IMG/VR virus record: IMGVR_UViG_2690316166_000007
Reading direction: 5' to 3' (one strand)
DNA: 4,969 bases
From: a virus
Lineage: Duplodnaviria; Heunggongvirae; Uroviricota; Caudoviricetes
Both the position numbers and the translations under genes were made by a program. The notes under the pieces were generated by a model. It was not told where the DNA came from, did no database searches, and saw only the letters and a list, made by a program, of their open reading frames with translations. Shown here one piece after another: positions 1 through 4,599 of this stretch; the first letter of the stretch is position 1, and every line of letters starts with the position of its first letter.

Positions 1-107
1 TACACTAAATCAGTAAGTTGGCAGCATCACCGAAGTGGTAAAGAAGATAATAAAGAATAATATTTAGGGTTATAGGTCTTAGCCCATTTTAAATGGAAGG
101 CAGACAT

Positions 108-462
108 NNNNNNNNNNNNNNNNNNNNNNNNNNNNNNNNNNNNNNNNNNNNNNNNNNNNNNNNNNNNNNNNNNNNNNNNNNNNNNNNNNNNNNNNNNNNN
201 NNNNNNNNNNNNNNNNNNNNNNNNNNNNNNNNNNNNNNNNNNNNNNNNNNNNNNNNNNNNNNNNNNNNNNNNNNNNNNNNNNNNNNNNNNNNNNNNNNNN
301 NNNNNNNNNNNNNNNNNNNNNNNNNNNNNNNNNNNNNNNNNNNNNNNNNNNNNNNNNNNNNNNNNNNNNNNNNNNNNNNNNNNNNNNNNNNNNNNNNNNN
401 NNNNNNNNNNNNNNNNNNNNNNNNNNNNNNNNNNNNNNNNNNNNNNNNNNNNNNNNNNNNNN
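108..462. other. Run of 355 N (assembly gap or masked sequence); content unknown
   Basis: Continuous n characters; flanks are AT-rich. Any ORF read through it is uninterpretable. Confidence 0.95.
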
Positions 463-513
463 CATGCTCCAGTGTGTATCTTTTTTGGGAGGGATTGGCT
501 GCAAATAATCAGA

Positions 514-954
514 NNNNNNNNNNNNNNNNNNNNNNNNNNNNNNNNNNNNNNNNNNNNNNNNNNNNNNNNNNNNNNNNNNNNNNNNNNNNNNNNNNNNNNN
601 NNNNNNNNNNNNNNNNNNNNNNNNNNNNNNNNNNNNNNNNNNNNNNNNNNNNNNNNNNNNNNNNNNNNNNNNNNNNNNNNNNNNNNNNNNNNNNNNNNNN
701 NNNNNNNNNNNNNNNNNNNNNNNNNNNNNNNNNNNNNNNNNNNNNNNNNNNNNNNNNNNNNNNNNNNNNNNNNNNNNNNNNNNNNNNNNNNNNNNNNNNN
801 NNNNNNNNNNNNNNNNNNNNNNNNNNNNNNNNNNNNNNNNNNNNNNNNNNNNNNNNNNNNNNNNNNNNNNNNNNNNNNNNNNNNNNNNNNNNNNNNNNNN
901 NNNNNNNNNNNNNNNNNNNNNNNNNNNNNNNNNNNNNNNNNNNNNNNNNNNNNN
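514..954. other. Run of 441 N (assembly gap or masked sequence); content unknown
   Basis: Continuous n characters. Separated from the first N run by a readable island of exactly 51 nt (463-513). Confidence 0.95.
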
Positions 955-1068
955 ACCATCCTTAGAGTTAAATAATTGAATGTCCACTCCAGCAGTTGGT
1001 TGTATATATTTTGAAAGCTCTTTCTTGAACTTGTTAATATATTTATCTTTGTTTTCTTTGTTGGTCAT
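955..1068 (-). CDS. Visible N-terminal 38 codons of an AT-rich gene of unknown function that runs leftward into the N runs; true length and stop unknown
   Basis: ATG at 1068-1066 on the - strand opens a frame (MTNKENKDKYINKFKKELSKYIQPTAGVDIQLFNSKDG) that stays open to the gap edge. The 51-nt island and the left flank are also open in this frame if gap lengths are taken literally, but gap lengths in scaffolds are estimates. Lys/Asn-rich, low-GC composition contrasts with the nin genes to the right. No obvious Shine-Dalgarno sequence. Confidence 0.4.
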
Positions 1069-1155
1069 TGGTTAGATCCATAGTTCTGGCTGTGATTAGG
1101 TGAAAGTATACAAGGTTTTTAAAGCGAAGATCACTGTTTTGGCTTCAAGATAGTT

Positions 1156-1184
1156 TTGATTTATCGTAATCAATCCGCCATAAT
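1156..1184 (+). promoter_or_regulatory. Candidate sigma70 promoter reading rightward into the nin operon
   Basis: TTGATT (1156-1161), 17-bp spacer, CATAAT (1179-1184); 4/6 and 5/6 matches to consensus. Lies in the divergent intergenic region about 50 bp upstream of the small-ORF start. Sequence match only. Confidence 0.3.
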
Positions 1185-1221: not shown

Positions 1222-1245
1222 CGCATTTAAGGGGACTTAAATGCG
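1222..1245. promoter_or_regulatory. Perfect 10-bp inverted repeat with 4-nt loop (CGCATTTAAG-GGGA-CTTAAATGCG); candidate operator or RNA hairpin covering the small-ORF start codon
   Basis: Arms 1222-1231 and 1236-1245 are exact reverse complements. The right arm contains the ATG at 1241-1243 and the loop contains the purine-rich candidate RBS. No U-tract follows on either strand, so it is not a typical intrinsic terminator. Confidence 0.35.
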
Positions 1246-1336
1246 ACCACAATCTGAACTCATCACCTTGTCACAGATGCAGAAATGCACCTGCGATTTT
1301 CTGCATTCTGCGGTTTCCGTTAGGGAGGCCGTATGA
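1241..1336 (+). CDS. ylcH: Small ORF (31 aa, MRPQSELITLSQMQKCTCDFLHSAVSVREAV), positional equivalent of DLP12 ylcH; stop overlaps the ybcN start (ATGA)
   Basis: ATG at 1241 preceded by AAGGGGA 5 nt upstream; in-frame TAA immediately upstream limits the ORF to 31 codons. TGA at 1334-1336 overlaps the ybcN ATG at 1333-1335. Assigned by position; I do not remember the ylcH sequence. Below the length cutoff of the supplied ORF track. Confidence 0.4.
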   Translation: MRPQSELITLSQMQKCTCDFLHSAVSVREAV

Positions 1337-1788
1337 CTCTGCCAGTAGACGGCATCAAACTCCATCGCGGTAACTTCGCGGCCATCGGCCAGCAGATTCA
1401 GCCATTGCTGGATGCCGGGCAATGCTTACGCCTGCAGGTTAAGCCGTGGCGCGAGAAGCGCAGCCTGTCGCAGAACGCGCTCAGCCACATGTGGTACACG
1501 GAGATCAGCGAATATCTCATCGCCCGCGGCAAGACCTTCGCTACGCCTGAGTGGGTCAAAGACGCGATGAAGCACACCTATCTCGGCTACGAAAGCAAAG
1601 ACCGTGTAGATGTCGTGTCCGGCGAGGTCACCACCGTCCAATCCCTCCGCCATACGTCAGAGCTGGAAACCGGCGAGATGTACATCTTCCTGTGCAAAGT
1701 CGAAGCCTGGGCGATGAATATCGGCTGCCACCTGACAATTCCGCAGAGCTGTGAATACCAGCAGCTGCGCGATAAGCAGGAGGCGTAA
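1333..1788 (+). CDS. ybcN: YbcN, DLP12-type prophage protein (151 aa); recalled as an Orf/NinB-family recombination mediator with reported DNA base-flipping activity
   Basis: ORF 1333..1788 from the track; strong SD GGGAGG (1323-1328) 4 nt before the ATG. Protein matches my recollection of E. coli K-12 YbcN, and the downstream gene order ninE-ybcO-rusA-ylcG-quuD-nmpC matches DLP12. Confidence 0.85.
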   Translation: MTLPVDGIKLHRGNFAAIGQQIQPLLDAGQCLRLQVKPWREKRSLSQNALSHMWYTEISEYLIARGKTFATPEWVKDAMKHTYLGYESKDRVDVVSGEVTTVQSLRHTSELETGEMYIFLCKVEAWAMNIGCHLTIPQSCEYQQLRDKQEA

Positions 1789-1958
1789 TGGCTACACCGC
1801 TTATTCGTGTCATGAACGGGCACATCTACAGAGTATCAAATCGTCGTAAGCGTAAGCCTGAGCTGAAGCCATCCGAAATACCAACACTGCTCGGATATAC
1901 CGCTAGCCTGGTTGATAAAAAATGGTTGCGACTGGCAGCAAGGAGGAATCATGGCTGA
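1788..1958 (+). CDS. ninE: NinE-family small prophage protein (56 aa, [56 protein letters not shown])
   Basis: ATG at 1788 overlaps the ybcN stop (TAATG); SD AGGAGG at 1778-1783. Hand translation runs to TGA at 1956-1958. Basic, nin-region position. Too short for the ORF track. Confidence 0.8.
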   Translation: MATPLIRVMNGHIYRVSNRRKRKPELKPSEIPTLLGYTASLVDKKWLRLAARRNHG

Positions 1959-2241
1959 TTTGAGAAAAGCAGCGCGTGGTCGGGAATGCCAGGTAAGAAT
2001 CCCTGGCGTATGTAATGGCAATCCTGAAACGTCAGTACTGGCACATATCCGGCTGGCTGGATTGTGCGGTACCGGTATCAAACCGCCAGACCTGATTGCC
2101 ACCATTGCATGTTCTGCCTGTCACGACGAAATCGACCGCCGCACATATTTTGTCGATGCTGAGTATGCAAAAGAATGCGCGCTGGAAGGTATGGCGAGAA
2201 CGCAGGTTATCTGGCTGAAAGAGGGGGTTATTAAGGCGTGA
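1951..2241 (+). CDS. ybcO: YbcO (DUF1364), Cys-rich putative zinc-binding nuclease of the prophage nin region (96 aa)
   Basis: Track ORF 1912..2241 begins at a TTG. I prefer the ATG at 1951 ([14 protein letters not shown]...) because AGGAGG at 1941-1946 sits 4 nt upstream and the ATG overlaps the ninE stop (ATGGCTGA). Conserved Cys/His positions; matches recalled K-12 YbcO. Confidence 0.85.
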
Positions 2242-2600
2242 ATACCTACAGCATCACATTACCCTGGCCTCCGAGCAATAACCGCTATTACCGCCATAAT
2301 CGCGGGCGCACACACATCAGCGCAGAAGGGCAGGCATACCGCGATAACGTCACCCGAATCATTAAAAACGCAATGCTGGATATCGGCCTGGCTATGCCAG
2401 TGAAAATCCGTATTGAGTGCCACATGCCGGATCGCCGTCGCCGTGACCTGGATAATCTGCAAAAAGCCGCTTTTGACGCACTCACCAAAGCAGGTTTCTG
2501 GCTGGATGATGCTCAGGTCGTTGATTACCGCGTTGTGAAGATGCCTGTTACCAAAGGTGGGAGGCTGGAACTGACCATCACCGAAATGGGGAATGAATGA
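2238..2600 (+). CDS. rusA: RusA Holliday-junction resolvase (endodeoxyribonuclease RusA, 120 aa)
   Basis: Track ORF 2238..2600 with GTG start overlapping the ybcO stop (GTGA). Protein [24 protein letters not shown]...[25 protein letters not shown]... matches recalled E. coli RusA, including the acidic catalytic region. Confidence 0.9.
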
Positions 2601-3206: not shown

Positions 3207-3239
3207 TATGCCAATTGTTTACTAAAAATTATTAAAAAT

Positions 3240-3257
3240 GGGGCGTTGCAACGCCCC
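3240..3257 (-). terminator. GC-rich perfect hairpin (GGGGCG-TTGCAA-CGCCCC) flanked by A/T runs; candidate intrinsic terminator for leftward (porin) transcription
   Basis: The 18-nt palindrome is preceded on + by ATTAAAAAT, so on the - strand the hairpin is followed by AUUUUUAAU. On the + strand it is followed by CAAAAAUAAA, which is not a U-tract. Confidence 0.4.
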
Positions 3258-3323
3258 CAAAAATAAAGGGTAATATATAACAGAAGGTTTATATAGTTAG
3301 AAGCAAGGTTGTGCTCCTAAAGG

Positions 3324-3379
3324 AAGTGGCTTGAGGGAGCCACTTATATGTTGGGGAGGCAAAGCCTCCCGCAACATAT
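3324..3379. terminator. Two adjacent stem-loops just downstream of the porin stop; candidate bidirectional terminator (tR'-like for the + strand, porin terminator for the - strand)
   Basis: Hairpin A: 3324-3331 / 3338-3345 (AAGTGGCT / AGCCACTT, 6-nt loop). Hairpin B: 3346-3360 / 3364-3379 (about 15 bp, one bulged G, AAA loop), followed on + by CUUUUAG. On the - strand the same structures follow the porin TAA (3397-3395) and precede CCUUUAGG. Confidence 0.45.
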
Positions 3380-3394
3380 CTTTTAGTAATCAAA

Positions 3395-4599
3395 TTAGAA
3401 CTGGTAAACCATACCTACAGCAACGATATCATCGGTAGCAACGCCAGATGCTTTCGTGAAATCGCTCTTATCAATCAGGTTGATTTTGTAATCAACAAAA
3501 GTGGACATATTTTTGTTGAAGTAATAGGTTGCACCTACATCAATATATTCAACCAGGTCCTGATCACCCCACGCACCCAAGTCTTTTCCTTTAGATTGCA
3601 GGTAAGCAACGGACGGACGCAGACCGAAGTCGAACTGATATTGTGCAACTACTTCGAAGTTTTGTGCTTTGTTGGCAATATGGTTATTACCAAAAACAGT
3701 CATGTTCTGGGTTTCAGAATAGGTGGTAGCCAGATAGATGTTGTTCGCATCATATTTCAGACCAGCTGCCCATACTTCAGCATTTTGACCAGATGCATTC
3801 AGGCTGTTGTTACCGTAGATAACCTGATTATTAGTGCGGTCAGATTTAGCATAGGTTGCACCTACACCGAATCCTTCATACTCATAAGTAGTGGAGAAAC
3901 CGAAACCATCACCATTAGCTTCAGTTACGTCAGTGCGGTCATTTTTACCCTGATACTGAGCAGCAAAGTTCAGACCATCAACCAGACCAAAGAAGTCGTT
4001 GTTACGATAAGTTGCAACACCAGTGGTGCGACCAGTCATGAACACATCTGTTTGAGTCCAAGTGTCACCACCGAATTCTGGCAGGACGTCAGTCCACGCA
4101 CCGATGTCGTATGCTACACCGTAGTTACGGCCGTAATCGATGGAGCCGTAGTCACCGAATTTCAGGCCAGCGAAGGCAAGACGGGTTTTATCTTTGGANN
4201 NNNNNNNNNNNNNNNNNNNNNNNNNNNNNNNNNNNNNNNNNNNNNNNNNNNNNNNNNNNNNNNNNNNNNGTAGTCACCGAATTTCAGGCCAGCGAAGGCA
4301 AGACGGGTTTTATCTTTGGAGGAACCTTGAGATTCAGCGCGGTTGCCTTTGAATTCATATTCCCACTGACCGAAACCAGTCAGTTGATCGTTGATTTGGG
4401 TTTCACCTTTGAAGCCAAGACGGGCATAAGTAGTATCACCATCATCTGCATCATTAGAGGAGAAGTAGTGCTTAGCATTAACTTTCCCGTACAGATCCAG
4501 CTTGTTACTGTCTTTATTATAAATTTCAGCTGCCTGAGCAGACATCGCCATCAGTACTGATGCAGCTACAGCAGAAATTGCCACTGTTAATTTTTTCAT
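3395..4599 (-). CDS. nmpC: General outer-membrane porin of the OmpC/OmpD/NmpC family (prophage moron); reading frame split in this assembly by an N gap plus a duplicated 51-mer
   Basis: ATG at 4599-4597 gives [23 protein letters not shown] / [17 protein letters not shown]..., a signal peptide with AQA cleavage motif. The C-terminal part (track ORF 3395..4045) ends ...VGMVYQF with the terminal Phe typical of beta-barrel OMPs. Removing the 122-nt gap-plus-duplicate joins ...[14 protein letters not shown] to [27 protein letters not shown]... in frame, giving 361 codons including the stop. Confidence 0.8.
4148..4320. repeat. Perfect 51-bp direct repeat (4148-4198 and 4270-4320) abutting both edges of a 71-nt N run (4199-4269); most likely an unmerged contig-end overlap
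   Basis: GTAGTCACCGAATTTCAGGCCAGCGAAGGCAAGACGGGTTTTATCTTTGGA occurs twice, ending exactly at the gap start and beginning exactly at the gap end. 51 + 71 = 122 nt, not a multiple of 3, which accounts for the apparent frameshift in the porin. Confidence 0.85.

Follow-up and report, generated by a model that had tools for sequence, protein, structure and literature searches.

The DNA analyzed here, called the window throughout, is a 4,969-nucleotide (nt) stretch of the Caudoviricetes record IMGVR_UViG_2690316166_000007 in IMG/VR. Its positions 960–1400 are 100% identical to the chromosome of Escherichia coli CV839-06, where the matching locus is a DLP12-like lambdoid prophage whose genes run in the order immunity genes, the replication genes O and P, IS1, a truncated minus-strand hypothetical gene, ybcN, ninE, ybcO, rusA, ylcG, and quuD; a porin gene comes next, on the opposite strand. 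A 264-nt gap separates the end of the truncated gene at 1068 from ybcN (1333–1788, + strand), a member of the NinB/Orf family (Pfam NinB, PF05772) and the first long gene of the nin operon. This gap holds a palindrome at 1222–1245 and a small open reading frame (ORF) at 1241–1336. Sequence comparison assigns both to a conserved cassette, a promoter plus a structured leader, with which the nin operon begins in many lambdoid prophages. The reading we favor, at a probability of roughly 0.6, is that positions 1156–1336 are the promoter and 5′ leader of this operon (ybcN-ninE-ybcO-rusA-ylcG) and would act as a two-step translational lock keeping ybcN low.

Individual features of the cassette were annotated decades ago. 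K-12-type genomes carry, at the position of the small ORF, a 33-amino-acid "hypothetical protein" with a 4-base overlap with ybcN, exactly UniProt YLCH_ECOLI ("Uncharacterized protein YlcH"); a 32-amino-acid version is annotated in O157:H7; the phage 82 record X92588 (1996) marks orf33, its ribosome-binding site (RBS), putative −35 and −10 hexamers, and a "possible regulator-binding site"; and the phi80 record (JX871397) labels the palindrome arms IR4. None of these records assigns a function, and our literature search found no functional study of the palindrome, ylcH/orf33, or IR4, mentions of ylcH being incidental only. The 31-amino-acid version in the window has no annotation in CV839-06 and is absent from the protein collection searched.

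Alignment with the K-12-like and O157 loci places the small ORF of the window in the ylcH/orf33 family. The loci share the map position directly 5′ of ybcN/orf151, the same promoter-like hexamers, a first hairpin (HP0), the ORF core SQMQKCTC..LH, and a 4-base stop/start overlap (ATGA in the window, GTGA in K-12 and phage 82), and the phi80 IR4 arms match the palindrome. The window differs from K-12 and phage 82 in ORF length (31 versus 33 amino acids), in both terminal cassettes of the ORF, and in hairpin version: "A" (ATTTAAG/CTTAAAT) here, "B" (TAAACG/CGTTTA with a bulged U) there. What is new is comparative evidence for these features as one conserved module, in which the hairpins behave as RNA structures, the ORF is a leader and not a protein gene, and a second hairpin would lock ybcN. 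An earlier examination of the window from its letters alone (the original prediction) had singled out the palindrome, the ORF, and a second inverted repeat; to these we add a third hairpin (HP3) over the ybcN Shine–Dalgarno sequence (SD) and the existing annotation of the ORF as ylcH/orf33.

The cassette is widespread. Of 5426 complete E. coli genomes, 2778 contain a match, and nearly all matches begin at query positions 193–210, that is, at window 1152–1169. It is present in phages 82, phi80, HK639, and HK225 and in several phages of Enterobacter and Klebsiella. Scanning IMG/VR twice with exact patterns, anchored once on the HP0 3′ arm plus linker and once on the promoter-like hexamers, yielded more than 130 loci. 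A single scan of species-representative genomes extended the range of the module to Lelliottia, Enterobacter, Huaxiibacter, Franconibacter, Escherichia, Leclercia, Scandinavium, Citrobacter, Pseudescherichia, and Trabulsiella. In other phages the genes upstream of the leader are co-directional and unrelated; the "divergent intergenic region" of the original prediction is thus an accident of this strain, produced by IS1 and the truncated minus-strand gene. A terminator resembling lambda tR2 lies just 5′ of the module in only 8 of 108 distinct flanks and is not a general feature. Two IMG/VR contigs, L034 and L030, carry two copies of the promoter-leader module each, about 2 kb apart. In L034 (7795–9835) the region between the copies holds one ORF of 41 amino acids, part of it hydrophobic, and two longer ones of 202 and 169 amino acids, and the leader ORF of the first copy reads into foreign sequence, as if the module were a recombination site for gene insertion.

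Promoter-like site and 5′ hairpins

At the upstream edge of the cassette, a promoter scan and conservation both point to a promoter-like site (1156–1184, + strand) consisting of TTGATT (1156–1161), a 17-nt spacer, and CATAAT (1179–1184). We profiled information content across 85 unique upstream flanks, taking only downstream-anchor loci so as to leave the promoter region free of constraint. The profile stays near zero upstream, rises abruptly to near maximum at TTGATT, falls in the spacer, and is high again at AATCAA and CCATAAT. The few loci with other upstream sequence have TGnTATAAT or TTGAAA-17-CAATAT at the same place, and hexamers that are replaced yet stay promoter-like are what is expected of a functional promoter. 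Hexamers at 17-nt spacing, conserved against variable surroundings, suggest a sigma-70-type promoter that would start transcription at about 1190, at the foot of HP0.

The −35 hexamer is also one half of a conserved inverted repeat, TTGATT-N6-AATCAA (1156–1173), whose center is variable. We regard this repeat as a plausible operator and a better candidate for one than the palindrome. Among known binding sites considered for it, FNR was dropped on spacing (consensus TTGAT-N4-ATCAA, N8 here), and IHF, DnaA, LexA, Fur, and CII were dropped for poor consensus fit.

HP0 (1189–1215, + strand; −12.5 kcal/mol) has arms at 1189–1197 and 1207–1215 and a 9-nt loop, CCUGAACAA (1198–1206). Stem length varies among versions, but the distance from the −10 hexamer to the start of HP0 stays at 3–5 nt, so an RNA begun at the predicted promoter would carry HP0 at its 5′ end. 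Covariation of HP0 and HP1 was scored on loop-centered segments; a whole-leader MAFFT alignment set HP1 variants out of register. Across 44 distinct sequences, 88.4% of HP0 cells are paired, against 68.2% in shuffles (0 of 500 as high), with two-sided changes at 9 of 10 pairs, and slid registers fall to 25–52% paired. The stems CGTCAG/CTGACG, GCCGTCGG/CCGGCGGT, and CGTGG/CCACG substitute for CATCGGAG/CTCCGGTG; the loop remains YYUGARCAM throughout and is nearly invariant. The "possible regulator-binding site" of X92588 coincides with the HP0 repeat.

In Franconibacter helveticus (L182) and IMG/VR contig L319, HP0 stands in tandem as two to three copies with different stems and the same loop. 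The tandem copies and the invariant loop suggest a recognition motif for a factor. A scan of viral contigs for tandem CCTGAACAA gave almost exclusively unrelated coding repeats, L319 being the one true extra case, and the rest of the window was searched for sequence complementary to the HP0 loop without a match above chance. The likeness of the loop's CUGAACA to the tRNA-Phe anticodon loop, and a 16S rRNA 8-mer match in one HP0 variant, are unsupported speculation.

The palindrome corresponds to HP1 (1222–1245, + strand; −13.3 kcal/mol). As originally described, its 10-bp arms, CGCATTTAAG (1222–1231) and CTTAAATGCG (1236–1245), are 100% complementary around the loop GGGA (1232–1235), and the ATG (1241–1243) lies in the 3′ arm. 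The loop is a GNRA-type tetraloop with an SD-like GGGG(A), part of a purine run, AAGGGGA, that spans the stem top and the loop. The claim that RBS and start codon are both sequestered holds for the AUG, which would be buried in the 3′ arm, but not for the SD, which is displayed in the loop. A perfect 10-bp inverted repeat with a 3–8-nt loop appeared in 6 of 300 dinucleotide-preserving shuffles of the window, so the palindrome is unlikely to have arisen by chance. The folding check proposed with the prediction was run on 1200–1345: the RNA folds at −48.3 kcal/mol, far more stably than shuffles (−34.9 ± 3.7 kcal/mol; z = −3.67; 0 of 200 as stable).

HP1 exists in about 11 stem versions, including ATTTAAG/CTTAAAT, TAAACG/CGTTTA with a bulged U, and TTTGAG/CTCAAA, which has a G·U pair and starts with GUG; in more distant versions the 3′ arm reads AUGGCGC. 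A purine-rich loop (GGGA, GAAA, or AGAGAGA) and an AUG or GUG in the 3′ arm recur in nearly every version, and in one Leclercia locus the AUG lies 2 nt past the stem. The inner six pairs are paired in 92.6% of cells against 65% in shuffles (0 of 500 as high), with two-sided changes at five of the six. HP0 and HP1 thus both carry the compensatory substitutions of a conserved structured RNA. An Rfam scan of the whole window at E ≤ 1 returned no match, IsrK included. An RNA thermometer was considered and dropped, the stem being too stable. In some distant relatives the HP1 start codon directly opens a long gene (DUF1367 or a small membrane protein), which makes the start-codon hairpin the older element and the leader ORF one use of it.

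Leader ORF and the ybcN start

The leader ORF (1241–1336, + strand; peptide MRPQSELITLSQMQKCTCDFLHSAVSVREAV) has 31 codons plus a stop, and its TGA (1334–1336) overlaps the ybcN ATG (1333–1335) as ATGA (1333–1336), in agreement with the original prediction. Of 100 unique variants, 99 keep an intact ORF of 29–33 codons starting from the HP1 3′ arm, and about 94% end in a TGA overlapping the ATG or GTG of the next gene (A/GTGA). Three further leaders with a differing 3′ module have 40–53 codons.

The ORF is built of three parts: a variable, C-rich and G-poor N-terminal cassette (1244–1270), a nucleotide-conserved core (1271–1297), and a C-terminal cassette encoding the SD of the next gene. Four unrelated N-terminal cassettes occur (MRPQSELLTL, MRTYNPNSLLP, MQTTIRTPFNQ, and MRKHKEHRTTSL), all of them unstructured, with 33–43% C and 3–12% G; as a speculation, Rho might load on such a cassette when it is not translated, or ribosomes might use it for standby. 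The C-terminal cassettes (..KEAV, ..GGGV, ..GGEA) do no more than translate the SD region of the next gene, and the genes that follow are three very divergent NinB subfamilies and, in one locus, the antiterminator Q directly. Every cassette, whether one of the four N-terminal or of the four C-terminal types, is a multiple of three in length and contains no in-frame stop but the terminal TGA. The core peptide SQMQKCTCDFLH recurs across leader ORFs. Its nucleotides (TCACAGATGCAGAAATGCACCTGCGAT) are conserved at all three codon positions, and neither pairing proposed there covaries. A Chi site in the core was considered and dropped for poor consensus fit.

Variation in the ORF is flat with respect to the reading frame. 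Three leader-ORF classes have 10, 11, and 11; 6, 4, and 6; and 8, 7, and 7 variable sites at codon positions one to three, against 20, 12, and 70 for ybcN from the same loci. This difference from the third-position bias of ybcN implies that translation, and not the peptide, seems to matter: the frame and the termination point seem to be under selection, the amino acids not detectably so. The leader peptide has no Pfam match. On these comparisons, ylcH is better treated as a putative regulatory leader ORF than as a protein-coding gene.

The second inverted repeat of the original prediction is present inside the ORF as HP2 (1277–1306, + strand; −11.4 kcal/mol), with arms ATGCAGAAA (1277–1285) and TTTCTGCAT (1298–1306) 12 nt apart. 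Although described as imperfect, the repeat has no mismatch, and it extends one base further on each side, but covariation does not support it: across 35 alleles, 86.0% of cells are paired against 86.3% in shuffles, with one double change, unlike the pattern of a structured RNA. A perfect 9-bp repeat with a 3–14-nt loop appeared in 47 of 300 shuffles, so HP2 is not remarkable alone and could be due to chance. A short, terminator-like 5-bp stem (1278–1295) showed covariation no better than that of HP2. The HP2 5′ arm and loop are conserved as sequence.

HP3 (1309–1333, + strand; −15.3 kcal/mol) would connect the end of the leader with the start of ybcN. The last leader codons (1309–1318) pair with 1324–1333, which comprise the ybcN SD, GGAGG, and the A of its AUG, and HP3 is part of the minimum-free-energy fold of 1200–1345. 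For each of the four 3′ cassettes, which are unrelated, folding predicts an HP3-like pairing (−12 to −22 kcal/mol) that usually takes in part of the start codon. The leader ORF thus has the anatomy of a coupled leader: an SD and start of its own, an end on the next start, and predicted burial of the downstream RBS. HP3 makes coupling between the leader and ybcN mechanistically plausible.

A proposed two-step lock and competing explanations

In the mechanism we propose, a transcript from TTGATT-17-CATAAT would begin with HP0 and fold HP1, showing a weak SD in the loop and burying the AUG of the 31-codon leader, so that few ribosomes would initiate. Covariation supports the structure of HP1, and we infer how it affects initiation. 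The selected trait would be an open frame ending A/GTGA on the next start. The SD and start of ybcN would be locked in HP3, and only a ribosome finishing the leader would open HP3 and reinitiate, an arrangement whose anatomy points to classical translational coupling. The nin operon would then stand behind two serial locks, with low translation set by HP1 opening, and the overlapping gene chain downstream would follow. Rho-dependent polarity on the poorly translated, C-rich and G-poor leader may add to this, although that step is speculative; a literature search connecting bicyclomycin or Rho with DLP12 yielded nothing usable. The original prediction is partly supported by comparison: the palindrome behaves as a + strand RNA hairpin whose stem covaries while the GGGA loop and start codon are kept, and the ORF is kept with its A/GTGA overlap, also ahead of different genes.

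The downstream junctions in the window (1785–2600) all overlap: TAATG between ybcN and ninE, 8 nt between ninE and ybcO, GTGA between ybcO and rusA, and ATGA between rusA and ylcG. The leader ORF is one more upstream link in this chain. Kröger and Hobom reportedly described the lambda ninR region in 1982 as a "chain of interlinked genes," with stop/start overlaps like those from ybcN to ylcG.

The closest functional precedent is IsrK-orf45-anrP of the Salmonella prophage Gifsy-1, in which an upstream ORF (uORF) is conserved in its nucleotides and not its amino acids, overlaps the next gene as AUGA, and is accompanied by a sequestered RBS and proven coupling (PMC4825925). Like the window leader, IsrK combines a prophage promoter with a highly structured leader and a uORF stop on the next start, and it is translationally inactive by default, as proposed for the window leader. 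The two are without sequence homology (no Rfam IsrK match at E ≤ 1). They also differ in what is buried at the uORF (the RBS in IsrK, the AUG here) and in setting, since the IsrK locus adjoins antQ and controls the antirepressor-like anrP, whereas NinB-family genes follow the window leader. IsrK is unlocked in trans by a short, terminated form of its own RNA; neither a terminator nor such a form is evident in the window leader, where coupling is deduced from anatomy.

Holding a start codon in a stable hairpin is a familiar device, seen in the MS2 replicase operator hairpin and in fold-back inhibition of IS10, and in both, as proposed here, initiation depends on the hairpin opening. Those systems are worked by a known protein or by alternative 5′ ends, whereas both arms of HP1 lie downstream of the predicted transcription start. 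Lambda has, at the same map position between ren and ninB, the intrinsic terminator tR2 and an exposed SD, and no such leader. By this analogy, the cassette may be an alternative to tR2 for holding nin and Q expression down.

Recombination proteins (Orf/NinB, RusA or Rap) are encoded in the operon concerned, which runs on toward the late-gene antiterminator Q. All that is on record for K-12 is that the operon is "poorly expressed": rusA expression is too low unless an insertion supplies a promoter. Low rusA expression fits a locked leader without proving one, and such a leader would offer a concrete, testable reason for the silence. With the cassette in about half of complete E. coli genomes (as counted above) and in O157 strains bearing Shiga toxin (Stx) phages, opening of the lock by any means would act on many prophages simultaneously.

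Several points weigh against this account. Low rusA expression in K-12 could equally mean an inactive promoter, and a 10-bp GNRA hairpin over the AUG could leave the ORF hardly translated. The flat codon-position pattern comes from few substitutions, with 16–32 variable sites per class. Two serial locks leave unexplained the nucleotide conservation of the core (1271–1297), the invariant HP0 loop, the tandem duplication of HP0, and the −35 inverted repeat. The exact anchors used for the scans lay within the element, so anchor conservation is by construction, and the loci are kin by descent and recombination, so the counts are not independent events.

In a rival reading, a trans-acting factor (a host or phage RNA-binding protein, RNA polymerase itself, or a small RNA) would recognize HP0 and HP1, with burial of the AUG as its switch and not as a constant brake. 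The loops CCUGAACAA and GGGA are kept while the stems change freely, the tandem HP0 copies in Franconibacter (L182) and L319 share one loop, and GGGA, like the GAAA of a divergent member, is a GNRA loop of the kind that N peptides bind. The element also occupies the position of lambda tR2, has a precedent in IsrK, and would be a riboregulator or antitermination-type element comparable to boxB of nut or to HK022 put; its GGGA loop is of GNRA type, and two hairpins follow the promoter. We nevertheless consider this unlikely: the HP0 and HP1 loops are the same across phage immunity types, which makes an immunity-specific N protein improbable; no boxA-like sequence was seen in the leader, no Rfam match and no complement of the HP0 loop was found in the window; and the GGGA loop is explained simply as an SD. 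In a broader form, to which we give slightly more but still low credence, the promoter, HP0, and HP1 would constitute a widespread riboregulatory module whose loops, CCUGAACAA and GGGA, are read by a conserved host or phage factor or a trans-acting RNA that unlocks the nin genes and ultimately Q. If so, the leader would be an N-independent gate on the early-to-late switch, acting on translation and, by way of polarity, on transcription, with an IsrK-like logic.

The remaining explanations rate lower. That the hairpins mainly stabilize or process the mRNA, as a 5′ stem-loop does against RNase E and RppH, with the small ORF a coupling spacer that gates nothing, would suit the fixed distance of HP0 from the −10 hexamer, the place of a 5′-terminal protective hairpin, and the stability of all the hairpins. 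It leaves unexplained the start codon in the HP1 3′ arm of nearly every version and the buried SD of the next gene in four unrelated cassettes, and we judge it quite improbable. A functional YlcH protein, with the ORF conserved for its peptide, is less probable still. The ORF is intact in nearly all variants, its core SQMQKCTCDFLH recurs, and the protein is annotated in K-12 and UniProt; its N-terminal third, however, is swapped among four unrelated sequences, its C-terminal third tracks the next gene's SD, its core is conserved at all positions, and it lacks both a Pfam family and the third-position excess that ybcN has.

We give very little credence to a leader attenuator or terminator of the tR2 or pyrBI type, in which a hairpin in the ORF and a U-rich run would stop polymerase unless a ribosome translated through. 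A scan does flag the stem at 1278–1295 followed by ATTTTCTGCA, many alleles have six to seven consecutive U there, and the position is that of lambda tR2. This stem is weak, with five pairs including a U·G around an 8-nt loop, and neither it nor HP2 covaries; HP0 is followed by ACUUCUGC and HP1 by ACCACAAUC, with no U tract after either; and lambda tR2 looks quite different, so that nothing in the leader qualifies as an intrinsic terminator or tR2 analogue. The alternative offered with the original prediction, a DNA operator at the palindrome for a phage regulator, here widened to host regulators, has the least to commend it and is extremely improbable. It would suit a perfect palindrome near a promoter-like site, and X92588 notes a "possible regulator-binding site" at the neighboring HP0. 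An operator would be expected to keep its half-site, yet the arms covary and are exchanged for unrelated complementary sequences, some of which pair only through a G·U or around a bulged U, a fit available to the + strand RNA only. The palindrome further lies past the predicted start, about 30–55 nt downstream, phages of different immunity types share the same versions, and the −35 inverted repeat (1156–1173) is the better candidate.

Other features of the window

Upstream of the leader, window positions 1–1068 hold a minus-strand hypothetical ORF interrupted by IS1, which is masked as N; the N runs at 109–462 and 515–954 correspond to the IS1 of CV839-06.

K-12 has two reported HusR (YnfL) boxes upstream of rusA (PMC12844172, Table 1), and one of them recurs unchanged within ybcO at window 1991–2006 (CAGGTAAGAATCCCTG). 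Downstream of the leader there may thus be a separate, stationary-phase route to rusA-ylcG expression.

In the porin gene (ompC/nmpC-like), a 71-nt N run (4199–4269) lies between exact 51-bp direct repeats (4148–4198 = 4270–4320). CV839-06, the closest complete genome, is without the extra 122 nt and the duplication and has several base differences nearby, so either the window comes from a different strain or this stretch is an assembly or masking artifact. The IpeX small RNA of K-12 maps near the 3′ end of the porin gene, but the Rfam scan returned nothing in the window. Between the convergent quuD and porin genes, two strong G+C-rich palindromes, at 3236–3260 (GGGGCGTTGCAACGCCCC) and at 3338–3376 (GGAGGCAAAGCCTCC, nested in a longer repeat), are likely terminators.

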